DNA of 63,354 nucleotides, counting the filler, from Sphacelaria rigidula (Eukaryota): the NCBI GenBank assembly GCA_964200075.2. It is 10 parts of 10 records of this genome, joined end to end, with 100 filler letters (N's around TTAATTAATTAA, not from the genome) between each part and the next. Parts side by side here need not be neighbours in the genome. Positions count along the whole stretch, not along the records: positions 44,421 to 50,665 come from CAXNAA020021265.1; 9 more parts are not named here. One strand, given 5' to 3'. Shown here in pieces: positions 6,247-57,110 of this stretch. The notes under the pieces are model-generated. The model was not told the origin of the DNA. It saw only the letters and a list, made by a program, of their open reading frames with translations, and ran no database searches. How positions within the stretch are numbered: the stretch's first letter is position 1; every line of letters begins with the position of its first letter. The position numbers were made by a program, and so were the translations under genes.

Positions 6247-6346
6247 NNNNNNNNNNNNNNNNNNNNNNNNNNNNNNNNNNNNNNNNNNNNTTAATTAATT
6301 AANNNNNNNNNNNNNNNNNNNNNNNNNNNNNNNNNNNNNNNNNNNN
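6247..6346. other. Artificial contig linker
   Basis: 44 N + TTAATTAATTAA (stops in all six frames) + 44 N. Confidence 0.99.
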
Positions 6347-12592: not shown

Positions 12593-12692
12593 NNNNNNNN
12601 NNNNNNNNNNNNNNNNNNNNNNNNNNNNNNNNNNNNTTAATTAATTAANNNNNNNNNNNNNNNNNNNNNNNNNNNNNNNNNNNNNNNNNNNN
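12593..12692. other. Artificial contig linker
   Basis: 44 N + TTAATTAATTAA + 44 N. Confidence 0.99.
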
Positions 12693-18938: not shown

Positions 18939-19038
18939 NNNNNNNNNNNNNNNNNNNNNNNNNNNNNNNNNNNNNNNNNNNNTTAATTAATTAANNNNNN
19001 NNNNNNNNNNNNNNNNNNNNNNNNNNNNNNNNNNNNNN
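18939..19038. other. Artificial contig linker
   Basis: 44 N + TTAATTAATTAA + 44 N. Confidence 0.99.
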
Positions 19039-23059: not shown

Positions 23060-25049
23060 AGAGAGAGGGTGCCAAGCTATTGTATAGTTCTCACTGCAGT
23101 AGGTATTCACGTCGTTTTTGGGTATGTATGTCATCTTCGTGTGAGGCTCGCGGGGCGATTAAAATATGGCTAATTTCATACTGTACTGTATGGATATGGT
23201 ATCGTGTTGGGCGTTTTCACGCCTGTAGCTGCAGCATTTACTGTGCCTTTTTTGAGTTATCGTTGTTTGTTGTACGAAGCTGCGGTGTTTGTTTTGTTCA
23301 CGCGCCTTCCCCCCCCCCCCCCCCCCCCCCCCCCCCGCCCCCGCTCCTCTTTCTTTGTCGCGGGCGCTTTGTTCTTTGGGGGGTGGGGTTTGTTTTGTTT
23401 TTCCGCTCTNNNNNNNNNNTCTCGCTTTTTCTGTGCTTTTTTTTGGTTTTCCTTGTTTTTTGTCCCAACGTGGGGTTTTTTTTTTTTTCCCGCGCCTTCC
23501 CCCCCCCCCCCCCGCGCTCCTTTCGCAGAGTATTCATTTTTGCGTTGGCGCGTGCATTTTTGCGTTGGCGCGTGTCTTGTTTTTGTATCCCTAGCGTATA
23601 ATTGAAGACGGACCGCAGATGCTTGGCCAAAACAGCTTTGTAGGAGTGTTGTCTTTCACTTCGTTTTTTTTCGTGCTGCACTAGCAAAGTGCCCTTCCCC
23701 CCTTCCCCTCCCTGAGCGCAGGCTTGCTAGGTCAGAAAATATGCCCGATCAGCGAGACTTTCGCGGGCGCAAATAGCCAGGTTCGGCTTCAGGGGATAAA
23801 CTGAAGTTCGTTGTCGGTTCGCGCCCCCTTCCCTTCCACTTCACTGCTTCTTCGTTTATTTTGTTCTTTGCACCGACAAGCAGTTCTAGTATGGGCCATG
23901 ACATGCTTTGCTCAGCGGTACGACTCTCATGGTGTTCGATAATATCAGTATCGTGTTGAGAAGCATTGAAAACTATTCTCTCGGTTGAGATGGGTACGCA
24001 TCTTGAGTGGTGACCGCCCTGTCGCTGTGTCATGTGCGTTTCTGCTGTATCGGGGTGTTGAAGCCCTGGTACCGCAGCAGCAGGACAAAATCCAACACAT
24101 GAGTGGTTCTTATGCTTTTGGAAGAGGGGGGAAAGCCAGATTAATATTCCAAATCCAGATCTTGACAGATTGCAATGCTCCTGCATCGGACATCACCGTA
24201 GAACCAGTCAGCCTTCAAAAGTTCAAAAGTCAAATTTCGGCTCCAGAAACCGAATCATGGATGTGTGCCACAGCCCTGCCATGCATCATGTGAGGATTTC
24301 CGGAACCGCAATTTCATCTGTGCGAGTCGTTCGAGCTCTTGACAACAGGGTGAAGCCACGTCAGGAAGCTGGGGCGCGAAACTTATCTAAGCACAATGAA
24401 TGAGCTGGAAAAGAACCCAGTCTGACCCAGGGAATCAAGCGCCTTTGCGAGCATTATTATTTGTTTTTTGTTCTTTCCAACTCCTTCGGATTTGAGGTGC
24501 GACCACAAAATCAATTATGAATGGATCACATACTCGAGACTCCCGGTTCCAATTTTCGAATTGGTTTTCTCAGGCTATTCCAGATTCGGCATTAGATTTC
24601 GACAGAAAACACTCTTTTTTGTAATGCATTTACAAAAACAAGAACTTTGAAAAAAAACAGCAGAACTTTTGAAAAAACTGCTCAAAATATGACCCCATTG
24701 AATGGAGTACAGGATACTACACTAAACACAAGACAATTCTCCGGTGGTATATGGAGTAAAGAGTACTACACTGAACACAAAATAAAACAGCAGTTCTGCA
24801 GTGTTTTTTAGTTTCAGAACCTGAAGACGGACCGTATACAATATGCATCAGCTTCTCTGCCCAGCTTCTCCTGCTGTACTACTACAACAGAGTAATTTTT
24901 TTTTCAGAAAATGTAGTCAAGCGAACAAGGCGCTTTCCACACCCATGATTTCTATGCTGTAGTTGTCGCTGCGCTGTTGTGCATTTGAACACTACGACAA
25001 ATATGGTGTGATGTGCGCTGGAGAGTGCCTGAAAAGTTGTAGTGCTGCA

Positions 25050-25284: not shown

Positions 25285-25384
25285 NNNNNNNNNNNNNNNN
25301 NNNNNNNNNNNNNNNNNNNNNNNNNNNNTTAATTAATTAANNNNNNNNNNNNNNNNNNNNNNNNNNNNNNNNNNNNNNNNNNNN
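25285..25384. other. Artificial contig linker
   Basis: 44 N + TTAATTAATTAA + 44 N. Confidence 0.99.
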
Positions 25385-31630: not shown

Positions 31631-31730
31631 NNNNNNNNNNNNNNNNNNNNNNNNNNNNNNNNNNNNNNNNNNNNTTAATTAATTAANNNNNNNNNNNNNN
31701 NNNNNNNNNNNNNNNNNNNNNNNNNNNNNN
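31631..31730. other. Artificial contig linker
   Basis: 44 N + TTAATTAATTAA + 44 N. Confidence 0.99.
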
Positions 31731-35277: not shown

Positions 35278-35737
35278 GTGAAGATTCAAACTATAAATAA
35301 AAAAGAGTCAAATTAAAAGCGACAAATGACGCAAACCTGTTCTTGTTGTTTGGTATACATTTTCCACCACCTAGTTATTCCCTCCTTGTTTCTTGTCGTG
35401 ACGTAACTGTTTGTGACAGAGATGGTACTATAGTCGTTCTGAACCCCATCTTTTCGGCCAGATGCGAAGATCTCTTGACTTGAGCTTTGTCGCGTAGTTT
35501 GCGAATACTGCTGCGGCAGAGACACCCGAAATCTAAGCGGCCACAAAAGAGGTTGAATTCTTGAAGAAAAAAAGGTTCGTCGTTTCCGCAGACGCGCTTT
35601 TCCCGCTTTGACAATTTCGACATCTTTGACGGCATACATGCGGAATATCTCCCCCCAACTTATCCCCCCCTTCTCCGTAACAATGCGTGCACTCTCTATC
35701 ATCTGTATATCGACATCTATCGAATTATGGACACCAG

Positions 35738-36271
35738 GTTCGACTCGCGGTGGTCCAAGTAGACGGAGAGGCTATCCAGAGGGGCCAAGCCACTACCAGC
35801 CGGGAAACCTTCTGCCCTGTATGGATGGACATCGGAGGAGGCATGGCGTCACCATCCGCGCCCGCTGCCAACAACGACCCATCAGCGAATGGGGAGACCG
35901 CAACGAGCGCTTCTCCGGCGTCCGCTGCGGCAAACGAGTCGGCCGATTCCTTGCTGGGCGGGGTCTCGAGCGACGCCGGCGACAACTTGGCACGAGGCGC
36001 GGGGGTTTCTGGGGGTGGATTGAGGGGAGTAGAGGGGAGTGCCGGAGAGGAGAAAGGGGGTAGTGGTGCTGGGGAGATATACTTGGCCAGGGTGAATTGG
36101 CTACAGGATGGGTCTCTCTGTGCGCAAGTGCAGAACCGGAATCAGACGGAGCTGAGGCTGCTGCGCCTTGACCCGAACAGCGGGGCACACACGGTGCTGG
36201 TGGTTGAGCGATCCAAGGTTTGGATAAACCTTCATCACCTGCTTCGATCGCTCCCGTCGCCGACCCCGCAG
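35738..36271 (+). CDS. Dipeptidyl peptidase IV-like (S9B), exon d
   Basis: VRLAVV...EIYLARVNWLQDGSLCAQVQNRNQTELRLL...VERSKVWINLHH; 534 bp, phase 0-0. Confidence 0.92.
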
Positions 36272-36478
36272 GTGTGTGTGTGTTCATGCGTTCAAGTCTG
36301 TGGATATATGCATTCGCGGCGGATGCGGAAGGGGGGGGGGAGATGGTCTTGGACTGCTTACCCGCTTGCGTTCCTTCCTTCCTTCTTTTTTTTCGTCGGG
36401 CATGCGCGACGATGCTCAAGGAGGATTTGTTTTCCGTCCAAGTAGTGAACGTGAATTATCATGGTGTTTCCTTGTTTC

Positions 36479-36512
<34 letters not shown>

Positions 36513-37598
36513 GTCTTCGATTCAAGGTTGCCGTTCGTGGAGTTGTCCGTTTCCCGATGGAAGTTGCCGTCTGAGAGTGACCGCGGGTTGGTTCGGCGCT
36601 CATTTCGCTTCGTCCACTAATCAATAACGCAAGGAGCAGCGTGCCTCGCCGTTTTGTCGACTAAATTCCCTCTGTCAAATCGAGTTTATTAGAGTGTGGT
36701 GCATGTTTCGGTGCAGCGTGCTGCCGATTTTTTTTTTATCAAGCCTCGGACTTGGATTCCATCCCTTAATGCAGAACTGTGTGCAAAGATGATTGGACAC
36801 CGAATAAGGATGTGCCCACGACAAGCGCGGTTGTCAGGTCGTCATTTTTGTGTCTCTCTCCTGGAATGTTTGAAATGTGGTGGATGCATGGCCCATAATT
36901 TTAATGAAAAAATTGAAGTCTGTGTTCATGTAGGATATAACATCCAAGGGCAACAAAAGGGTCACTGACACATGGAATTGCTACGATTCAAATATCTGCG
37001 GGACTGTCAGGCCGCGTTCTCGCAATGGAAGGACTTGGGCGCCGAAAAGATGATGATGCAATGCTCTTGGTTTCCGAAGAACTCAGTCAGATTACTCTTT
37101 CAACAGTCGGGAGCACGTTTTTGTGCGTTTGTCGCTAGAAGTCATTCTGGTTGTACCATGGCTTAACATTATTTGATTATATCACACGCTAGGGTCAAGC
37201 CTAATCCCGATCTCAACCCAAAACATACCGAGAACCCTCGGGCAAGAGTAGTGTTTGTGGTGTCCTAGTCAAAGTGTCCTCGCTTGCGTTGGCAGGACTC
37301 AGATCGCGTCCTGCGCATGGCGGGGGGCACTCGGAACCGTCGACTCCCGGAAGATCCGAATGGTCATAGTCCACACTGAACCCCATTGGTCGTTCTACCA
37401 TGGATTATGACGACCAAGTAGCCTATACGCTACTGACACGACTTCTCGTGCCCGTGCCCGTGCCTGCATCGAAGATCCAGTTTTGCTTGATATCTTCATC
37501 TTCTGCCTACGCGTCCCTGTAGTATACCACCCTGGACCCCGCTCCTTCTCCGCCACTTCCTGATGTACGCCCCCCCCCCCCCCCCACTCTTGAAGCAG

Positions 37599-37883
37599 CC
37601 CCCAGAGGAGAGCGCGAACAGCGGTGGAGGCGGCGGCAATGGTGACAACGGTGGTTGCGGTAGTGGGAGCACTGTGAGCGGCATGGATGTTTCTCCTTCT
37701 TCCTCTTCGTGTGCGCCAGCGCCAGCGCCAGACGGTTCCTTCCACTTCATCTGGGCGTCCGAGAGGTCCGGATACATGCATCTGTACCTGTACCAGTACG
37801 TACCCGGTGCAGACCGGGCAGTCGAGGTCCGACAAATCACGTGCGGAGAGTGGGTCGTGGAGTCTGTCGTTGGGGTGGATCAG
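37599..37883 (+). CDS. Dipeptidyl peptidase IV-like (S9B), exon e; catalytic domain lies off-contig
   Basis: [16 protein letters not shown]...[17 protein letters not shown]; 285 bp, phase 0-0; AAGCAG tandem acceptor. Confidence 0.92.
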
Positions 37884-37914
37884 GTGAGAGCCAACTGGGT
37901 TGGAGAGAGAGAAG

Positions 37915-37975
37915 GGGGGGGTGTACTCATGATCATGCTTGCCATAGTCATATGACCATTGACCTCGCATCCCTA
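37915..37975 (-). mobile_element. Family Z (type 1) 3' end at contig end
   Basis: (G)nTGTACTCATGATCATGCTTGCCATAGTCATATGACCATTGACCTCGCATCCC. Confidence 0.75.
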
Positions 37976-38075
37976 NNNNNNNNNNNNNNNNNNNNNNNNN
38001 NNNNNNNNNNNNNNNNNNNTTAATTAATTAANNNNNNNNNNNNNNNNNNNNNNNNNNNNNNNNNNNNNNNNNNNN
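37976..38075. other. Artificial contig linker
   Basis: 44 N + TTAATTAATTAA + 44 N. Confidence 0.99.
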
Positions 38076-39131: not shown

Positions 39132-40611
39132 TAAATACCTCGTTTATTATGAGGGTGTTATTGACCGTACAGCACAGTTTTTCGGCTCTAGTGCAATGAG
39201 TAGGTAGAATTAAAAAAAAAAAAACATTTCTTCACAAATATGATCGGGACAGGCTCGATCGACCGGAAAAACCATGGAGTAAGAATCTGGGCTGAAACGT
39301 GGCAGGACCCCCGATGACCGTTAAGCCCGTAAGCACTCAAAATTGAGTATAGATGACTTTTTGTTCTCCGAATGTGGAGCGGATTCAAGTATCTCCAGAT
39401 CACCAATGTGATAAGTGGTGGCAAACGAAAAGAGCCCAAGTAAATTGCCAATTACAAAAAAAATCACAAAATGCCACAAAATGAATAGTCGGACCGCCCA
39501 CACTGTACAGACGGTGTGAAGCTATGACGGCAACACATGAGGCGTCAGACAGGGCACAGGCTACGAGCAGGCCACGGGACACGTTATTTGTGCCCATCTA
39601 TTTCATGATTGACTTGTGACGACCGAAATGAGGAATGCCCCGAGACAGCGAAGTAGCCCACCTGCCGGGGAACCACGTGCTTATTTTGACGGCCTTGATT
39701 GGTCAGAAAGGTCATTCCATGCCTCTTGGGTGTCGTTTTCGGCTTAGAATCTTCCGCGGAAAACTTCCAAGCACACATGTTTGGTTCGGTGAACTTCCCT
39801 GCTGCTCTGCGGACAGACACGTCCCTACCCCCACCCACTGGAAACCCCTGAATTTATCCGAATTATCCGCCCGTGAAACTGTTCCGAGGCGACGCTCGCT
39901 GTCTAAGGGTTAACCCGACGCCTTGGTAAGATGGACGGACAAATGTATCACGCGTACCCTCGGGTGGCATTTCTACCCCGACATCAACAACGCGAGCACG
40001 TTCGCAATAGCATTGGATTGTCTGGAGGGACACACTGTCCGACCCCGTTTTTTTTCCCGCCCGCTTGTTTTTTCTTCGCATCCACACGAGTGGACACGAA
40101 ACTCAGTACCATCGACATAACGTATACATGCCCATGGAATATGTGACTTCACTACTGACGTAGCGTGCCGAGCAGGGCAAGCTAGTTGTGCTACAGGCCT
40201 TTCTCATTGCGCGGCATACCGCTGTGTTGTAAGAAGCATCGCGCTGATACTATTTTGCGGGTTTAAAAATTAGAAACGTCTGTCCTCCATGCGTTGTGTT
40301 TTGGTCGCCAAATATTCACACGTCTGACTTGGGCACTCACGTACATCTACTGTTCGCTACGTGGTTGGCGCTAGTAGACTCGTATTTCGCTTGTCTATCC
40401 GCGCTATCAGCCGATCGCGAAGATTTAGCCCCGTCGGTGGTTGTTCCATAGCACGTTGATCCTCTAATGATTACACGTCCCGTGTGTTGTGCATCCATTG
40501 CAGTGCACTATTACTCTTTGCGTGAGTAGTTGACACTGCTAGACCTATGATCCGACCGCTCATCCGTCCGTGGTCTCTCTTGATTGCCCCAAAACCACAC
40601 GCCATGAGCAG

Positions 40612-42837
40612 GAGGTCCGTCGAGAGCAAGACGAGCTTCGACGACAGCGAGAGGCCCGCTGGAGCGCCTGCGAGCCCTTACCTTCAGCAAAAGGACAAAA
40701 AGCGGGAGTTACTGCAACTTGCCCAGAAGTTCGAGAGGCACTTGGATTGGTCGGAGCCGAATCCGCCGTTGCTACTGGTGGCAGCGGCAGTGGTGGTGGT
40801 TGGGGCACTCTGCACTCTACTATCGTTGCAGCCGCCAATGTCGCGTCGACCAAAGTTCGTGGTGTTGCTAGTAGTGGTGGTGCGCGGAATGGAACAGCGG
40901 GAGTAAGGGTGAACAGCAGCGGCAGTCGTGAGCGCTCAAGTTGCAACGGGGCTAGTGGTCTTGGTGGCAACGCAGCGGAGGCCGGAGACGAAGGGAAGAA
41001 CGCCGGGACGGAAGGTGAAACAGAGCTGCCTTTTGAAGGCGAGAAAACGGACGGCGGTGAAGGTGACGAGAGTGGTGGTGGTGCCGCAGTGCGTGCCGTA
41101 AATGCGACCGCCGAAACTGTGGATATGGACGTGGAGAGAGAATCAGAAGAGGAGGAGGAACAGGGAGTGGAGCATGAGTTAGACGAGGCGGGGGGGGGAG
41201 AGGAGGAAGAGGAGGAAAAAAGGCATGAAAGTGATGGAGAAGAGGATGGTGGGTGCCCAGAAAAAAAAAAAACGCCCATCAAACAAATAAAAAAAATCAA
41301 CAAAATTCCCAAGATTCCGGCCATACACGACACCGCTACCCCTTTTAAGTACTCTCCGCATACTCGCAGCCGCAACGGGGCCACGGCGAAATCGAACACT
41401 ACGATAACCACCCCAATCGTGGTTGAAAAAAAAACTACGCCTAAAAGCGGCGTTTGCGGTGCAGGCAGTTCTTCTGGACCGCGGACAAGACGGGCGGCGG
41501 CCGCCGAGCTGGCCGTGTCGAAGGTGCAAAACCTGGAGTCAATAACGAAGACAGGGGGAAACGACCAAGTTTACGAGGGTGGTGAAATGGACTACGTCAA
41601 GGCGCGAACGCCTCCAAACGGGGAGATTTTGAGCACGGAAGATGATGGTGTGGATGCGCACGGTAGCGATGACGGATACGAGGGTGGGGGCGAAACACAT
41701 GAAAGGAGGGAAAATGTGGGTGACTCTAATTCCACTGAGGGGCCACGAGAGCGTCAAGAAGCTGGCGTGGAAGTCCTGGAGAAGGAGGAGATGGAAGAAG
41801 AGGAGGTACGGAGAAATTTGGAAGCTTCGGCGGCGGTAGTGGTGACGCCGCCGACACCGCATGCAGAAAAAAAGAATGGCCTCGGTGTGGTATCGTCATC
41901 GCCCAACGACACCAAGGGAGATGAAGAACCAGGAGGTGATGATATCAACCAAGGACAAGCAAGATATGCGGTTTCTGGTCTATCAGAGCAACGTAGAGAC
42001 AAGCAGATAGACCCAGAACCCACGGGATCGTCTGAAGGGGGAACGATGGACGATCGCCTGCAGCCGTCTGCATCGCTCGAGCTTCGTGTAGAAGCCTCCT
42101 CGGGTCACTCGGTGATAGCAACGGCAGTTACACCGCCGGAGGTTGAGGAACAGGAGAAGGAGGACCAAGCGCAGGTGGAACATCGTAACGGCTGTAGCTT
42201 GGGCGGGGATGCGATCGGAGCGTCCAATAGGATGAAGGAACGGAGTTGTTCAAACACGGAGAAGCAAGTCGAGCCCTCTGACCAACAACTAGTGTCGCAG
42301 ACAGTAGTGATGTCAAAGGAAGCTCCTTCGTCATCTTCGCCAGCATCATCGATGCAAGCCATTTCGCCATCGAAAGAGAATTCTTCTGCTGCTGGTGTTG
42401 ATACCAGCAGTTCAGCGGCGGTGGCGGGCGGGTGCGGAAGCGGGAACAATATGACCACCGTCGATCTACGGGCAAAACTGCAAGGTCTCACTCGAAACAG
42501 CACCCACACCAACGGTGTCGATCAAGGTTGTCAAGATCGCGTCGAAGACGCAAGCACTCACAGAAATATCAAGAAACGAACGGTGGCCGTTACAAGTAGT
42601 GGTGGTGCGGCTGTACCCGCTAGAAGGGATCCTGGTGTGGTGGGAAGAGCTAGCAAGCGGGAGTTGATGGGGGGCAGAGAACCTCAGTCAGATTGGTCTG
42701 CAGTTGCTATTCCAGCCGAGGTGGAGCAGTTTCCGTTCGTTTTTTCGCCCAATTCGGCCGACGGTGACCGAGAGGACCCTCTCAGTGTTGGTGGCAGCAG
42801 AGGTGGTGGCGGAACAGTGACGGGTCGGGCGAATTAA
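40612..42837 (+). CDS. Large terminal exon encoding an acidic, Gly/Ser/Glu-rich, probably disordered C-terminus of an unknown protein
   Basis: 755-codon stop-free frame (40570-42837); in-frame GAGCAG acceptor at 40611; starts EVRREQDELRRQREARW. Confidence 0.7.
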   Translation, partial: EVRREQDELRRQREARWSACEPLPSAKGQKAGVTATCPEVREALGLVGAESAVATGGSGSGGGWGTLHSTIVAAANVASTKVRGVASSGGARNGTAGVRVNSSGSRERSSCNGASGLGGNAAEAGDEGKNAGTEGETELPFEGEKTDGGEGDESGGGAAVRAVNATAETVDMDVERESEEEEEQGVEHELDEAGGGEEEEEEKRHESDGEEDGGCPEKKKTPIKQIKKINKIPKIPAIHDTATPFKYSPHTRSRNGATAKSNTTITTPIVVEKKTTPKSGVCGAGSSSGPRTRRAAAAELAVSKVQNLESITKTGGNDQVYEGGEMDYVKARTPPNGEILSTEDDGVDAHGSDDGYEGGGETHERRENVGDSNSTEGPRERQEAGVEVLEKEEMEEEEVRRNLEASAAVVVTPPTPHAEKKNGLGVVSSSPNDTKGDEEPGGDDINQGQARYAVSGLSEQRRDKQIDPEPTGSSEGGTMDDRLQPSASLELRVEASSGHSVIATAVTPPEVEEQEKEDQAQVEHRNGCSLGGDAIGASNRMKERSCSNTEKQVEPSDQQLVSQTVVMSKEAPSSSSPASSMQAISPSKENSSAAGVDTSSSAAVAGGCGSGNNMTTVDLRAKLQGLTRNSTHTNGVDQGCQDRVEDASTHRNIKKRTVAVTSSGGAAVPARRDPGVVGRASKRELMGGREPQSDWSAVAIPAEVEQFPFVFSPNSADGDREDPLSVGGSRGGGGTVTGRAN

Positions 42838-44320: not shown

Positions 44321-44420
44321 NNNNNNNNNNNNNNNNNNNNNNNNNNNNNNNNNNNNNNNNNNNNTTAATTAATTAANNNNNNNNNNNNNNNNNNNNNNNN
44401 NNNNNNNNNNNNNNNNNNNN
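44321..44420. other. Artificial contig linker
   Basis: 44 N + TTAATTAATTAA + 44 N. Confidence 0.99.
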
Positions 44421-44899
44421 GTATTAAGGACGCTGGCGCGCGCCAGAGGCGTCTAGAGAGGTGACAGGGTGGGTGTGAGGGTGGGGGGGGGGGGGGGGGG
44501 GGGGGGGGTAGGGTAGTCTTGATGATTGTACAGTACAGTATCATACTGTCTCATCCACCTTGAATCAGTTGTCTTAGAAACAAGGGAAACGTTCTCCTGG
44601 TTATATCACGGGTAAGGGATGGGAGATGCCTACTTGTGCCCACAATTATGGAAAATGATCATTCTCTTTACTTTGATTGACGCTACAGAACATGATCGAC
44701 CATCGTGTCTGAGCACAAGATACGATAATAGTTTCCACAAAAATATCCATGCTGATCATTTCGACATGTATATCGAAACCTTCGACACACCGAAGGTTGG
44801 CACATCTTTAGCCTGGTTCAATTTCCCCCACACTCTGTAATAGCAGAGAGGTCTACTGAACGCCAAATACTGAGTACTACTCAGTAAATACTGGCTTAC

Positions 44900-44995
44900 A
44901 TCATCCGCTTCTTGAAGGAATCTCCCAATCCGCTGCGCATCCAGCTCCACCATGACCACCTGCGGCTTCACCTCGCGCACTACATTTTCCACCAA
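44900..44995 (-). CDS. TraB/PrgY/GumN family protein, exon c
   Basis: LVENVVREVKPQVVMVELDAQRIGRFLQEADD (P..V.VELD..R motif); 96 bp, phase 0-0, GTAAGC donor. Confidence 0.9.
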
Positions 44996-45030
44996 CTTCA
45001 GCAGAACGGTCCACGGCGGTTGTTACAACG

Positions 45031-45103
45031 AGAGACACGAGACACGAGACACGAGACACGAGACACAGGACACGGAACACGGGACACGGGACACGAGACA
45101 CGA
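45031..45103. repeat. Heptanucleotide microsatellite (GACACGA)n
   Basis: About ten degenerate units just upstream of the TraB exon c acceptor. Confidence 0.9.
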
Positions 45104-47133
45104 ACGGAGAGCCAGGGGGGAAAACGACGGAAGCAACGGCTCCCATATGTGAGCACGCCATGATTAGCTCTACTATATTGCCCGTTGGCCTCGTCATTTA
45201 GTTCTTTCAACCAAGCCTTTCCAGGTTGGAAGCCTCTGAATACAATCGCCTTAAAGGGTACAAACGCACACACACACGCACGCACGCACAGCGCAACGAA
45301 ACGAAACGAAACATGACGTGACGCAGGGAAGTGACCCTCCGCGCTCTCCGCCATGAAAACGCGGCGTCGGCGATCACGCGCCCTCAAAGTGCAACCGTAA
45401 TTGCTTTGTTTCGCTGTTCCCCCGTGTTGCTTCCTGGATATCCGTCCACTCGTGTCGATAGCGATACAAATGTAGTATTCGTGGCGTGTGGAATAAGGCC
45501 AACGGGAGCTTAACGAATTCTCAAGAGAGGAACATATACCCGGAGACTATTAACCCTGACCCATGAACGGTGTAGCTCGTGGATGGCGACGCGACGCTGT
45601 GCATGGGTATACTTGGGACAAGGACACGTACCTTACGGTGCTCTACACTATTCTGACGATTTCGTGAGATTCCAGCAAACAATCAACGTCGTGCAGGAGC
45701 CCGAATCTCGAACCTATACATTCGGGAAATCCTGATTTTCGACGAAAACAGCGGTCACCTCACATCTAACGGAAAATTATCACCATTACGCGCGGTAGCA
45801 ACTCCACCTCCGACCATATCTTGAGACTATCCACTGTCACCAACACACATAGGCCAATGTAGAACCGATCCATGGTCCATCATCAGTTCATGTATCCAAA
45901 GTGACCACCAGCACGACCAATACCAATTGTCATCATTTTCACTGAATTCGCGTATTTTTTAGAGCTCGGAAATGGTACCAGTTATAACTGGCCATTATCA
46001 TTATTATGGTAATAATGGTAATGGGTACGTGAAAAAAATGGATAATGGCTTAAACCCTTATATACTGTTACCGGCTTGAAAAGCCGTTACCGAGTACGTA
46101 TGCTACATACAGCCCCCGAAATCGGCCCAATTTTGACGCATTTTTTAGCTCTAGTGAAGCCAATTCGCGTAAAACTGTGCCTCCGGCACGGCGCCTCCGG
46201 CGGGGCCCTCCGAGGGGGGGCTTTTTGGCTCGCGGCCGCGCCGCTCGATGGCCGAAACCATCATGTACCATTTGACTGGTTCATGGGTTCGCTACGCGTG
46301 ACCATTCCACTGCTTAATGGTTAGACAAACCATTTCCGACCTCTAGTATTTTCATTATGGTCATTTTCCAACGTTCTCGCATGTCGTTGCCCCCCATTTG
46401 ATCGTCGTGTGGTCGAAGCGCTGCTCCTCGGAGCGGAGCAGCAACAAGCTTCCTTGACAGGAGATGAGGAGCACAAGCTAAGGCCTCTTGCACTGAAGTA
46501 GCCCGCTGAGTTTTTTTTTAATAGCGGAAGTCCGGACTTCGATTCAAATGGACTAAACTCCTTGCTAAAACAGCACTCAAGAAAACGCACTGGAAGCCTT
46601 CACGCTTGTGTTCCCGTGCTTGTTCTAAAGCCTTGAACCCCTACACCCCCGAGCCGTTGCCTTCGGGACACTCCCCTATGGGTGAGTTTCAAGGAGAACA
46701 TTAAACCGAAACGCATACGACGTAGTTCGATATAATTCACCACCCGCGCCTAGAGCGCAGCGTTTGGGCCCGGGTTGATGTAATCGCGGCTCATGCCTAC
46801 CACACTCCTCGGGCGGCGGACACCCCGCAAAAAAGTGGGTACAGTAGGCAAAAAATCGAGCGATTAGGGGCCTAGCAGGTGACGGACGACAACATGGTTA
46901 TTCCTACTGGCCGACTCCTCGAAAATTACTCCACCTGTTGCCTTCACATTAAAAACCGTTCCGATACCTGCGCGGTACATTCTTACTGGGCATCTGATGC
47001 GGGACGCCTTCCGTGGTCACAGGCTAGCTACCTATAAAATTGTATGGGGAAATCAAACAAAACCAAAAAAAATAATAATTAGACCTCGATTGAAACTCAC
47101 GAAACGCGATACAAGCGAAAAAGGGATAAGTAC

Positions 47134-47368
47134 CTGAGCGCTGGAATTGGAAATGTGAGCGGTACCCACGAGCCACACTTCAGACTGCTTACTCGGATTT
47201 TGCAAATAAGATATTGTCTCATCGCAGAGAAATGGCCGCTTTCGCTTCGACGCCGGCCGCCTCTGCACAGCAGGAGAGTTTGCTGCCTCTGCTGCACTCG
47301 GTGCAAGAATCCCGCTACATCCTGCTGCTATTCCGGCGACTCCAGCTCCTAGCCCTCGAAGGAGCCCG
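47134..47368 (-). CDS. TraB/PrgY/GumN family protein, exon b
   Basis: GLLRGLGAGVAGIAAGCSGILAPSAAEAA...SEVWLVGTAHISNSSAQ (LVGTAH.S..S motif); phase 2 to 0. Confidence 0.88.
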
Positions 47369-47926
47369 CTGCGAGTTTGCGGCCGGGTGTTCACAATTTT
47401 GACGGTTCGGTTCATCACGTTTCGTCAGATCAGCTTGTGTCGTGTGTGCCATCAACCCGAAAAGCAACGGTCTGGGGGGAAAAGAGGCGATTGCCACGAA
47501 CACATCCCACACAGTTGTATTCGTGATACCATCAGCCAACTGTTTTGCGGTCTCGCCTCGGGGAAAACTCCGTGTCAACCATGTGCTCGTGCAGCAACGG
47601 ACAACAGCAGCCAGCCAGGCAAATCGTAACGTACGTTTGCAACTCCTTTTTTCGTTATACTCCACTGGGAGCAGTCCGCCCGCGTTGTGTGATATGACAA
47701 CACCTTAACTTCTGTGCAGCTTGGTGAGTTGGGAAGGAGAAGTCCGTCGCGCGACTTCGGATTGCACTCGGCAAACGCCTCCGGAGTATCGCGCCGTTCA
47801 ATCACTGGTCGTACTCTAGACGAGCCACCGTAGACTCGATGATTCCCGGTTTTAATTCACAGCGTCCGACACGTCCGAAAATTTCTGTTCCGATTTCCCT
47901 CGGTTGCTATACCCTCTTACGCTCAC

Positions 47927-48118
47927 CGTCGGTCTAGCGGGCCTGCGTCGGCGCTCATGGCGACTGCTGTCGCTGTGGCTGCTGCTCGGGAGCTGTGGTC
48001 GGCATCAGAAGATAGTGCGCGTGCCTGCCCTGTCGTGGTCAAGCCCAATAGGGAAGGTATCTCCCCGCCTGTGTGCCATGCTGACCATGATGTTGATGCA
48101 GCGAAGGACGACGCGGGC
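47927..48118 (-). CDS. TraB family protein, exon a (plastid transit-peptide-like)
   Basis: GGCAG acceptor, CG|GTGAGC donor, phase 2-2, in frame with exon b; PASSFAASTSWS...RAAATATAVAMSADAGPLDR(R). Confidence 0.7.
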
Positions 48119-49740
48119 CTGCCGAAGTCAAGATGCAACGGAGTATGATCGTTTATCACAACAGTGTCTGGATCTCAGTTCACGCGAAGTTCAGACGATC
48201 TCTCAAGTTTTATTTACTTGAGCTCAGTGTCTAGAACTGCCTTAATTGCTCTCACCATTAGGGCGCGCAGCCATCAAATACTAGAGCTTGCTTCATGGGC
48301 TACATTTAGAATTGCCCTCGAAGTGGCCATCCATGTCTCGAGTGGCTCACATTCACAACTATTTGCAGCGAAAGTCCGAGTAATACGGTAGGAACGGTGC
48401 CGCGCTGCAGTTAGTACTCGAGTACAGCCTAGCTCGACCCGGAGCGACGCGGGCTCATCACGGGAAAATCTCAAAAAGTTGAAACGCGCCTTTTGTGAAA
48501 CACATGTGCTCGATATTGACAACAAGAGGAAGGCAACATCGTGATCGCAAGGAGGGCTACGGGCTGTTGGTTCCTCATAAAAACAACGATTTGGAACAAA
48601 TGCAGCTTTTCATGCAGAGAGAAGTCCGTACCAATATATAGATGTAGATATAGATATAGATATAGATATATATCCATAAATACATATCGATATTCAACAG
48701 CTGCCTCGTGTCTTTTCATATTTTGTTTTGCAGAACATGGTACAAAACGTTATTTTTCAACGTTTCACACCCGCTGGATGCGTCAACAACTTGAAGATCG
48801 TGGCTGTTCATCACACGGGTGCTTTCCATTCTCCACGACTCGTAATAATATTCGTGAGGGTGTTTGGCCATTTCGGAGCATTTTCCTTGACTTGAATGTA
48901 GATATGTCTCAATTCCACACGCAACATAGAACCATTTAGACCATTTTATATTTTGTGTCATGATGTTGCGCATGCGAATGTGTAAAGTGTCAAGCCCTTA
49001 CCCGTCATCTCCGTGGGGAGACACGTGGTGAAATATCGAGTATTTTCACCAGCATAGTTCCAAAACGTTTTGGTTTGAAAGAAATGTGATATTATACTGC
49101 TCCCGTTCTATCCCTTCAGGATTTTCGTGAGCCTCGAGGCCAAATTTCGCGCACTCGCCTGCCATTGACAACACGAAATCGCGAATTTGATACATCTCTG
49201 ATTTCATAGGCACATCTCCAGATATTCCAACGTCCAGAACACGAATTCATTCGATCCAGAGCTCATCGACTTCCCGACTGTCTTTACTTTTAAAGGCAAG
49301 CAAAAAGGGCGAACATACCCAATTGTTTGTATCTCAAATGCCGCAGGTTGATGCCCACTTTCACATCTCAGCTCGTGGGAAAACACAGAAAATACCCAAA
49401 TTAGCGAAAAACGAATGCTAACTAACCGCGAAGACCTGGAGGTTATTTCGGTTCTGGCTTTCTTGCCCCGTGGTCTGCACGTACGTGGAACACCTGCATG
49501 CGTCAGAGCATCGCATATAGATCTCGTCATACTCTTTGCAACTCATTTGGTACCGACGGTTATTGGTGAGTTATACCACATTAACTGATCACCTGGGAAT
49601 CCAAGCGTGGTCACAAGATATAACCGTCGTGAGTACCCAAAGTGGACAGACGGGAAAAACACTCGCCACAGGAGGTCCGTTCACCACTTGGTGGGTTGAA
49701 AAAAGCTTTCTCGGAAACTTATCGTTTTGAAAAACTTCAA

Positions 49741-49779
49741 CTCTAACCCTGACCCTAACCCTAACCCTAACCCTAACCC
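49741..49779 (+). repeat. Interstitial telomere-type repeat (CCCTAA)n
   Basis: Four perfect units (49753-49776) plus CTCTAA and CCCTGA variants. Confidence 0.9.
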
Positions 49780-50338
49780 CAAGGAAGGCGTGCCGAGAGT
49801 CGTCGGGCTAGGGGTGTGCAAAGGTGTTCCCTAGGCAAAGTATTGGGGATGGCGTTGGCAGACCTCAAATCGGCGCCGATTTCAACAATAACGAGTCCTG
49901 CGCACGCTATTCATAAAGATCCGAATCTCGATGGCCACACTCGAACCAAGCGGGCCAACTACAACCAACCAAGTGGTGAGCTCTACTGTGCCAAAGGAAC
50001 TTCGACAATGAGACGGAGAACGAACGAAATAAACCATAGAAAGAGAAAGGTACAACACACAGACACACGCACACACACACACGAAAGAGGGGGAAAGAAG
50101 AACAAGAGGAAGGGAAGGGAGGAAATTTTATTTGCATTTACCCCGAGGCAGAAATCCCAGACCACAGAGCACCAAGCACGGCACCATCATTAGTCTGGAA
50201 GCATGCGTTGACCACGTACAACGTTCCATCCAGCACTGTACCTTGCGGCCGGTTAGCAACTAGCGATCAACGGGTCTGACAGACCGAAACGGAGACTGGT
50301 GAACCTGCACAACGACAGTACTTTAGTACAGACAGCAC

Positions 50339-50665
50339 GGCCCCCGGCAGCCTAATGGTACCGTTAGTACAGTACCGTCTGCAAAACGTTAGCACGTAAA
50401 ATTTGGGTTCGGTTCCCGGAGGATGTATTTGGGTTCTTCTGAAAATAAAAACGTGTTTACTTTCCGTCGTTGACAAGTCGTTGAAAAGTCCAGAACGTCC
50501 GTGAGCAGCAAAAAACGAGTGGATTCGAGGAGAGTTGACGCGGTGCGGGAGTGCTTTTTGTCATGATCCAATCCGCGAGACCAAGTACACGGCGTTAACC
50601 AGGGGAGACATGAACTGATCCCTTAGGACAACGGATTCGTCCGGAGAACGGGGGAGGGTGGAGGG
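50339..50665 (+). mobile_element. tRNA-headed SINE family Y
   Basis: Degenerate A box (GCAGCCTAATGG), B box (GGTTCGGTTCC), core GAGTTGACGCGGTGCGGGAGTGCT...CCGCGAGACCAAG. Confidence 0.7.
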
Positions 50666-50765
50666 NNNNNNNNNNNNNNNNNNNNNNNNNNNNNNNNNNN
50701 NNNNNNNNNTTAATTAATTAANNNNNNNNNNNNNNNNNNNNNNNNNNNNNNNNNNNNNNNNNNNN
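50666..50765. other. Artificial contig linker
   Basis: 44 N + TTAATTAATTAA + 44 N. Confidence 0.99.
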
Positions 50766-53397: not shown

Positions 53398-53914
53398 ACC
53401 CCACACCCCCCGCGGCGCAACCCCCCACCACCCAACAGCTGACCCACACCCACGACANNNNNNNNNNATGGGTACGAAAGGGGATTGGAAAGGGTGTTTG
53501 TTGCGGCAAAACGCGAAATAACCCCCCCCCACCCCCCCCCCCCCCCCCCTCCCCCCGATAGACAACATATACCGAAACGTGGAGCAGGTTCAAACCGACG
53601 ATTAATTGTAATTCGATCACACTCAAGACTCCAAAACATCGTCACCGTTGCTGTAGCTTTTTTCTTCTTGATGTGTGCTCTTTTGAGCACCGACAGATGG
53701 ACGGTCATGTCTAGCAGTTCTTTTTTCCAGTTAGCGTAGTGCCGGTGTAAAAAGGTTGACATTCTCGACATTTCGCTTATTAAATTGACACAGAACACAA
53801 CGATTCAAGCACATCTCGAAAACAGCAATCCTTGGGGATAACACGATTCCAAAAGTGCACCTCATGGAAACAGTTTTCGGGGAGTCTGTGTTCGTTGGGG
53901 GGGGAGGGGGGGGG

Positions 53915-57010: not shown

Positions 57011-57110
57011 NNNNNNNNNNNNNNNNNNNNNNNNNNNNNNNNNNNNNNNNNNNNTTAATTAATTAANNNNNNNNNNNNNNNNNNNNNNNNNNNNNNNNNN
57101 NNNNNNNNNN
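57011..57110. other. Artificial contig linker
   Basis: 44 N + TTAATTAATTAA + 44 N. Confidence 0.99.

Follow-up and report, generated by a model that had tools for sequence, protein, structure and literature searches.

Part of a gene for a TraB/PrgY/Tiki-family protein lies on the minus strand of a 63,354-nt stretch of DNA from Sphacelaria rigidula (assembly GCA_964200075.2), referred to here as the window, within the piece at positions 44421-50665 (record CAXNAA020021265.1). Taken as a whole, the data are best explained by a soluble protein with a three-part leader, which is probably exported to the thylakoid lumen by twin-arginine translocation (Tat), and a lumenal location as such can be regarded as quite probable. 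The gene would most likely represent an undescribed lumenal branch of the family in brown algae, diatoms, and haptophytes. Its splicing, expression, family membership, and leader conservation are documented below, and from the sequences we infer the route and the final compartment of the protein. The gene itself is an ordinary orthologue of genes annotated as 'TraB family'; the new point is the Tat leader, found across the clade and hidden by an intron.

The part of the gene held by the window comprises the following features, given in the order of transcription.

47927-48118, minus strand: exon A, internal; end of the signal-/transit-peptide region (RPASSFAASTSW, AMSADAGPLD), codon of the first Arg of the twin arginine (RR), and two bases of the codon of the second Arg.

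47369-47926, minus strand: intron of 558 nt, phase 2, within the second Arg codon of RR; skipped in three RNA-like runs and present in the DNA run X5.

47134-47368, minus strand: exon B; last base of the second Arg codon, hydrophobic core (h-region) of Tat type GLLRGLGAGVAGIAAGCSGILAPSA, A-E-A, a basic stretch, the Cys of FLCD, and GTAH.

44996-47133, minus strand: intron of 2138 nt with high-copy repeats (45884-46510 and 46929-47137); skipped in three RNA-like runs.

44900-44995, minus strand: exon C, LVENVVREVKPQVVMVELDAQRIGRFLQEADD, with the conserved Glu of VELD (44947-44945); placed by tblastn, RNA-like contigs, and splice borders.

As read from the window, the borders of exon A (acceptor cggcag before GCCCGC, donor CGACG before gtgagc) and those of exon B (acceptor ctcgcag before CGGGCT, donor GCTCAG before gtactt) are canonical. 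The start of exon A is set at 48118 by the canonical acceptor; the aligner gave 48121, since CAG is also the end of the upstream exon. The first Arg is encoded by CGA (47931-47929) and the second by CG (47928-47927) plus C (47368), in phase 2. Exons A and B, joined in the frame of an earlier sequence-only reading of this DNA, give ...AMSADAGPLD-R-R-GLLRGLGAGVAGIAAGCSGILAPSAAEAANSP...FLCDE...VWLVGTAHISNSSAQ. Within exon B, the A-E-A lies at 47292-47284, the Cys of FLCD at 47226-47224, and GTAH, with its catalytic-type His, at 47166-47155. Left unspliced, the frame of exon A continues through ...PLDRR into a stop, and the hydrophobic core sits in another open reading frame (ORF), so that the twin-arginine signal exists only in the spliced message, just as that reading had held. 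The model of the Ascophyllum orthologue (P0012) reads through the same place (...MLDRR, followed by non-homologous text), which suggests that the Ascophyllum gene has the intron at this same position after D-R-R.

The stretch is contained in eight public sequencing runs, five of them with 0.36 of the sampled words and three with all; the former share is close to the part that the two exons (427 bases) make up of the queried 1101 bases. Contigs of four runs, namely X1 and X2 (study P1), X8 (study P2), and the DNA run X5, were aligned to 44421-50665. In each of X1, X2, and X8, a single contig of 1.8-2.0 kb skips both 47368/47927 (558 nt) and 44995/47134 (2138 nt), and the skipped stretches are bordered by CT..AC on the plus strand, that is, by GT..AG on the strand of the gene. 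None of the contigs of X5 holds either joint, and one of them runs unbroken over 47043-49730. The 'RNA?' labels of the runs are a guess, and it is the spliced joints that show their transcript content. The gene is thus expressed and spliced, with exons A, B, and C in one transcript. RNA across the 47927/47368 junction was the check that the sequence-only reading had proposed for its splice of 48118-47927 to 47368-47134 in phase 2; the canonical borders and the three RNA-like runs bear out this splice, and exon 47927-48118 is present in the transcript. The contigs extend beyond exon A at the 5' side by 45, 183, and 31 letters (X1, X2, and X8, respectively) and beyond exon C at the 3' side by about 1270 letters. 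The window contains neither of these loose ends, whole or in parts. Translated by hand, the 31 loose 5' letters of X8 read ...PVLSASSYAI, in frame before the RPASSF of exon A.

The sequence-only reading had also assigned the gene to the TraB family. Single-exon translations gave no match to TraB families in Pfam for any of the three exons, because these are too short, and the assignment comes instead through identity to full-length orthologues. A word-index search with exon B retrieved Ectocarpus proteins that hold PF01963 (TraB_PrgY_gumN), and a search with one of them, the 404-residue P0005, added proteins from Pylaiella, Scytosiphon, Hapterophycus, Ascophyllum, and Undaria, together with eukprot g12520 and g2073, at 62-77% identity, after which the next matches drop to 37%. 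Orthologues are found in brown algae, in a raphidophyte and a pelagophyte, and in diatoms and haptophytes. The mature part encoded in the window is identical to P0005 at 48/61 positions, to brown-alga proteins at 44-48 of about 62, to the Discosporangium protein at 38/61, and to those of four other lineages at 28-31 of 56-62, which marks the source as a brown alga or a near relative. Against a cut-off of 26.8 bits, PF01963 scores 63.3 for P0005, 65.6 for the Prymnesium protein P0016, and 77.4 for P0017; at E ≤ 0.01, P0005 matches this family only. These values, read together with the identities, uphold the assignment of the gene to the TraB family. When P0005 was compared with the window by tblastn, residues 104-199 only were found, with exon B covering 104-160 (E 9e-18). 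GTAH (47166-47155) and the Glu of V-E-L about 24 residues further on (VMVELD, in exon C) are both present in the window and do not vary among the aligned members of the clade (14/14 and 15/15).

The fold was considered on P0005. In its AlphaFold2 (AF2) model, the core exceeds a predicted local distance difference test score (pLDDT) of 90 in several 10-residue blocks, while the leader is disordered. The TIKI-superfamily fold, a parallel beta-sheet core with flanking helices, is found in the predicted model of this one orthologue. The best Foldseek match of the model is a TraB-family subunit of complex IV from Tetrahymena (E 3e-8), and ChaN 2g5g (E 0.13), BcR135 3b55 (E 1.4), and HopBA1 5t09 (E 1.8) appear as non-significant entries. 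Nearest neighbours in the protein atlas are TraB clusters of diatoms, chlorophytes, streptophytes, and ciliates. Prokaryotic relatives were sought by a scan of genome contigs with a single pattern, in which 231 matches included one weak archaeal relative (31% over 64 residues) and no close bacterial or cyanobacterial donor, which is weak evidence given the single pattern.

After splicing, the window encodes D-R-R-G-L-L-R, with hydrophobic residues at positions +2 and +3 from RR, followed by an h-region of 21 uncharged residues (mean Kyte-Doolittle 1.46) and A-E-A. According to the available portion of PMC8730698, thylakoid Tat precursors are recognized by hydrophobic residues at RR+2/3 and A-X-A, and both are present in the window sequence; the consensus of the clade, given below, agrees with them as well.

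In the orthologues, the leader has three parts: an endoplasmic reticulum (ER) signal peptide ending before F, Y, W, or L; a transit stretch; and (S/T/D)-RR-x-(W/L/F)-(L/F) followed by an uncharged stretch and usually AxA. The signal peptide of the full-length brown-alga models ends in ...AES/F, ...ARA/F, ...AKS/F, or ...VTS/F (the slash marks the predicted cleavage), and is followed by a poorly conserved stretch rich in Ser, Thr, and Ala, by L-D-R-R-x-L-(L/I/F)-R, by a Gly/Ala-rich stretch, and by Ala-rich ends. RR occupies the aligned place in 10 of the 11 brown-alga orthologues that cover the region, which P0010 and P0013 do not include. A signal peptide, one of F/Y/W/L, a transit stretch, and an RR signal are also found in Discosporangium, Chattonella, and Pelagophyceae CCMP2097, and the same order is kept in the diatoms Stephanopyxis, Nitzschia, Cyclotella, Thalassiosira, Chaetoceros, Odontella, Attheya, and Cylindrotheca, and in the haptophytes Prymnesium and Phaeocystis. 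By eye, the cleavage regions of these named orthologues read ...AES/F, ...SSA/F, ...GGA/W, ...VSA/Y, and ...SYG/L. F, W, Y, and L make up the accepted set of residues after signal-peptide cleavage in complex plastids.

The window offers two candidates for this cleavage, SASS/Y in the 5' loose end and PASS/F in exon A. Relative to the conserved W-H, the Y of the former aligns better, by eye, with the F of Ectocarpus ...LLAES/F; ...PVLSASSYAI resembles the end of a signal peptide, and the cleavage motif may therefore be SASS/Y rather than ASS/F. The complex-plastid leader proposed in the sequence-only reading stands as far as the orthologues carry ER signal peptides before F/Y/W/L, while the 'ASSF' of exon A may not be the cleavage motif taken for it there.

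Two further features of the leader region can be mentioned. A basic stretch, R-R-P-x-x-K-R-(S/K)-(P/R), lies at 47257-47240 in exon B, after the predicted AxA site and before the conserved Cys. It occurs in most of the brown-alga proteins read, is weaker in Discosporangium, and is absent from diatoms and haptophytes; it might be an element for avoiding the general secretory (Sec) pathway or a later cleavage site. In addition, a Met stands at about 47959-47957 (in AVAMSADAGPLDRR), 9-10 residues before RR. By eye, the proteins of Ectocarpus, Scytosiphon, g12520, g2073, Discosporangium, and Chattonella share a Met at this distance with the window, and Pylaiella has one in the corresponding position, ahead of its R-G. 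It may be a fossil of the start codon of an ancestral Tat precursor of prokaryotic type.

The extent of the RR signal was assessed with motif rules devised for this analysis, the strict one asking for RR and, after it, a run of 12 or more uncharged residues. Searched with a profile, 1.84 billion representatives yielded 5158 hits, and E was ≤ 1e-30 for 364 of these. Among the best 150 of the 5158 hits, 96 proteins have the N-proximal Cys and a full N-terminus, and 70 of these 96 follow the strict rule, compared with 8.1 expected when each leader is shuffled. A larger set, to which a second word-index search contributed and from which P0001, P0021-P0121, and P0381 onward were left out, holds 236 proteins with the N-proximal Cys and GTAH; the counts were made on the 219 of them that start with Met and have 40 or more residues ahead of the Cys. 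RR lies 18-85 residues before the conserved Cys in 195/219, with a consensus of S/T/D at -1, W/L/F at +2 after RR, and L/F at +3, and an uncharged run of at least 12 residues is present in 183 of the 195. The Tat consensus usually quoted for bacterial and thylakoid signals is S/T-R-R-x-F-L-K, and, by sequence comparison, the consensus of the clade is this same one. Conservation of RR and AxA in ochrophyte orthologues had been suggested beforehand as a test of the leader, and the outcome, with RR in 195/219, the strict rule at 70/96 against 8.1, and A.A in 157/195, speaks for it. A tree built on the mature domain only places all the named algal sequences in one clade of 56 rows (support of 97 in the Shimodaira-Hasegawa-like approximate likelihood-ratio test, SH-aLRT), apart from 14 TRABD-like and 10 bacterial rows. 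The strict rule is followed by 42/56 rows of the algal clade, 3/14 of the TRABD-like, and 0/10 of the bacterial ones.

Several observations weigh against export of this protein to the lumen by Tat. In the TRABD-like outgroup, the strict rule gives about 20% of false positives (3/14). The excess of A.A is modest (157/195 versus 123.9 in shuffled leaders). Pylaiella has R-G in place of RR, 24/219 clade members lack RR, and in the subclade of the chrysophyte Epipyxis 8/11 rows fail the strict rule (the sequence is K-I-R-K in Epipyxis itself). The use of Tat is therefore not universal in the clade, and some lineages may use Sec or something else. The counted sets are redundant, with many diatom proteins from metagenomes, and part of the leader was included in the query profiles, so that RR may be over-represented. 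Finally, the exon for the signal peptide lies beyond the window in this very gene, as do two thirds of its catalytic domain.

These points bear on four other explanations of the leader. According to the first one, RR and the hydrophobic segment would be retained as an uncleaved N-terminal anchor, inserted by Tat or by Sec and the signal recognition particle (SRP), as in Rieske proteins, and the TraB domain would be tethered at the lumenal face of the thylakoid. A stretch of 21 uncharged residues, as in the window, can span a membrane; the enrichment in A.A is merely moderate (157 versus 123.9); and other eukaryotic TraB/Tiki proteins are membrane-tethered, as described in the accessible text of PMC9513094 and PMC12329661. 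However, the h-region is rich in Gly, Ala, and Ser, and its mean Kyte-Doolittle value of 1.46 is weak for a stable anchor. A.A follows the h-region in 157/195 proteins, and the length and sequence of the segment vary freely among orthologues, as is the case in cleaved leaders, which makes an anchor rather unlikely.

Secondly, the protein might be imported and then kept in the stroma, the envelope, or the periplastidal membrane, with RR as nothing more than a portion of a basic transit peptide. Arg, Ser, and Ala abound in transit peptides, and the strict rule fires on 3/14 TRABD-like proteins with organellar-looking leaders. Nevertheless, (S/T/D)-RR-x-(W/L/F)-(L/F) and the uncharged run are kept all the way from brown algae to haptophytes, between leader flanks that cannot be aligned, and the strict rule is observed 70 times for 8.1 expected. 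This destination appears improbable.

A third explanation relies on the internal Met some ten residues before RR (M-SADAGPLD-RR in the window, M-ELENTQLD-RR in Ectocarpus). Translation from it would yield an ordinary ER signal peptide and a secreted or ER protein. The database models P0002, P0004, and P0009 begin at this Met, losing the plastid leader, and the residue is kept in several brown algae and in Chattonella. In contrast, the frame of the transcript is open upstream, through exon A into the 5' loose end; a classical signal peptide and F stand further upstream in the longer models of Ectocarpus, Pylaiella, Scytosiphon, g12520, and Discosporangium; and most diatom orthologues have no Met at this place. 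Such a start would be very improbable.

The last one, a start at an in-frame ATG near 47413 with the 558-nt intron retained, so that MNRTVKIVNTRPQTRSGLLRGLG... would form a plain signal peptide or an anchor lacking RR, can draw on ORF 47424-47053, which is open across this ATG, on the ORF of a relative (P0001) that reads likewise, and on the fact that contigs can drop rare isoforms and a minor retained-intron form is conceivable, but it is hardly credible, since the contigs of the three RNA-like runs all join across the intron holding the ATG, none of them retaining it, and P0001 looks like an unspliced genomic ORF; the ATG was rejected as the start codon. P0001 itself (163 aa, 88% identical to the translation of exon B) appears to be a genomic ORF of a close relative, and is a case of ORF callers mis-modelling the gene by running through the intron upstream of exon B.

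Under the preferred reading of Tat export to the lumen, an ER signal peptide encoded upstream of the piece would bring the precursor into the outermost plastid compartment, which is continuous with the ER. The transit-peptide-like stretch, with its aromatic first residue, would then mediate import into the stroma, where the protein would fold. The twin-arginine signal (D-RR-G-LL-R, a Gly/Ala-rich h-region, and A-E-A) would direct the folded protein to the Tat translocase of the thylakoid, and cleavage after AxA would take place in the lumen. By further extension, the mature protein would be an active hydrolase, most likely a peptidase.

The residues expected for such an activity are present in the clade. 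H151, E175, E262, D281, E360-R361-D362, and H386 of P0005 are invariant in 14/14 sequences. Among them, the motifs of the C-terminal half (G-x-E-F, G-D-R-D, E-R-D, and G-x-A-H, with the second His and the Arg) are invariant in the orthologues, and their exons lie outside the piece. The TIKI superfamily is characterized by a set of two His and two Glu plus a conserved basic residue, as given in the part of PMC6254334 at hand, and the invariant His, Glu, and Arg of the clade correspond in sequence to this hydrolase set. Two Cys of P0005, C128, in (F/L)-C-D just before the domain, and C404, at the C-terminus, are likewise invariant in 14/14 sequences (A1), with equivalents in 15/15 (A2), while the TRABD-like P0021-P0024 have, by eye, no Cys at those places. 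These two clade-specific Cys could form a disulfide in the oxidising lumen.

That the protein is a catalytically active peptidase can be held with slightly less than even confidence on these sequences. Equally tentative is the best guess for its role, the trimming or clearing of peptides, which derives from analogy with TIKI, which trims the N-terminus of Wnt, and with PrgY/TraB, which neutralise pheromones derived from signal peptides. A structural, non-catalytic role is a possible alternative and counts against an enzyme, because the closest solved relative, from Tetrahymena, is a structural subunit of a respiratory complex. The fullest version of the proposal would be a dedicated, Tat-exported lumenal peptidase of TraB/Tiki type in ochrophytes and haptophytes, folded and perhaps loaded with metal in the stroma, closed by a disulfide from N- to C-terminus, and trimming the N-termini or clearing the signal peptides of lumenal or photosystem proteins; by analogy this is conceivable, albeit doubtful.

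In the open full-text literature, no paper was found that places a TraB protein in the plastid or the thylakoid lumen, in line with the remark of the sequence-only reading that it knew of no description of such a location. Arabidopsis TRB1, TRB2, and TRB3 and human TRABD have in common with the algal clade PF01963 and the GTAH...E...ERD...GxAH signature. TRB1/2 and TRABD reach the outer mitochondrial membrane or the ER by a transmembrane domain at the C-terminus, and TRB3, seen with an N-terminal red fluorescent protein (RFP) tag, is cytoplasmic, as far as the available sections of PMC9513094 and PMC12329661 describe them. In contrast, the algal proteins lack a C-terminal membrane domain, carry the tripartite plastid/Tat leader and the two clade-specific Cys, and form a separate clade.

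TIKI1/2 (TRABD2A/B) belong to the same superfamily, with a domain that faces a non-cytosolic space and a peptidase chemistry proposed to use conserved His and Glu, according to the accessible parts of PMC12329661 and PMC6254334. However, TIKI is an animal plasma-membrane protein that cleaves Wnt and follows the Sec route of the ER, whereas the algal domain would cross four plastid membranes and then pass, folded, through Tat. Enterococcal PrgY/TraB and bacterial TraB/GumN proteins of about 400 residues are members of the same Pfam family, the bacterial hits being 28-32% identical to the Ectocarpus protein; by eye, the C-termini of the bacterial P0025-P0027 are extended by long hydrophobic stretches, and an N-terminal export signal is absent.

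The closest solved structure, by profile (E 9.5e-5) as well as by fold (E 3e-8), is the Tetrahymena complex IV subunit (PDB 8b6h chain DQ and 7w5z chain E). Identity is 15-18%, and the Tetrahymena protein belongs to a respiratory supercomplex as an accessory subunit, as reported in the portion of PMC10060162 available; it is not a plastid protein. Canonical thylakoid Tat precursors and the tripartite leaders of complex-plastid algae share with the clade the order of signals, namely an ER signal peptide, an aromatic residue, the transit stretch, RR with hydrophobic residues at +2/+3, the h-region, and AxA, the Tat criteria being those given in PMC8730698. The passenger here is a hydrolase of TraB/Tiki type, which was not found in the text of papers on lumen proteins.

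Diatoms, brown algae, and haptophytes account for a large share of marine photosynthesis, and their lumen proteome is poorly charted. The lumen proteases known in these algae are of the Deg, Ctp, and signal-peptidase types. If the proposal is right, the thylakoid lumen would gain a new enzyme class, delivered by the pathway for folded proteins, and specifically a protease class that is not in current lists of lumen proteins. For the family, with members assigned until now to the plasma membrane, the ER or outer mitochondrial membrane, the cytoplasm, and the respiratory complex of a ciliate, the lumen would in turn be a new compartment. The protein would be a candidate for the processing or quality control of lumenal proteins, and one that is genetically tractable in Phaeodactylum or Ectocarpus. 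It would also follow that export signals of such genes are missed when exons are read singly, as in the three models that start at the internal Met and in Ascophyllum P0012, which runs through the intron after RR.

The window is made of ten pieces of about 6245 nt, joined by artificial spacers, all with the same pattern of N and carrying stops in all six frames.

44321-44420: artificial spacer (N44 + TTAATTAATTAA + N44), read letter by letter; lower border of the 6245-nt piece with the gene.

50666-50765: artificial spacer, read letter by letter; upper border of the piece 44421-50665.

6247-6346, 12593-12692, 18939-19038, 25285-25384, 31631-31730, 37976-38075, and 57011-57110: the other spacers, assigned by their identical N pattern.

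Because the window consists of joined pieces, the signal-peptide exon and the rest of the gene are outside the piece 44421-50665, and nothing about the genome can be read from the lack of an exon or neighbour in the window. The idea of a truncated gene, or of one with huge introns, was considered and rejected on the same ground. The window also has two gaps of 10 N, at 23410-23419 and 53458-53467.

In the 2138-nt intron, the repeats at 45884-46510 and 46929-47137 reach a summed DNA word depth of 11,000-258,000, compared with about 65 elsewhere and in the flanks. RNA-like runs also cover the bins of the repeats, with many loose ends clustered at 45959-45963, and a variant lacking one base at 47001 is frequent in each of the four runs.

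On a different piece, the open frames at 35681-36445 and 37491-37955, on the plus strand, match the successive positions 182-244 (E 2.7e-10) and 246-292 (E 1.6e-8) of the Pfam profile DPPIV_N, and are identified by this match as exons of a dipeptidyl-peptidase-IV-like gene. The plus strand also holds, at 40543-42837, an open frame of 764 codons, rich in Glu, Gly, and Ser, of low complexity and with no Pfam match; the opposite strand is open there for 336 codons.

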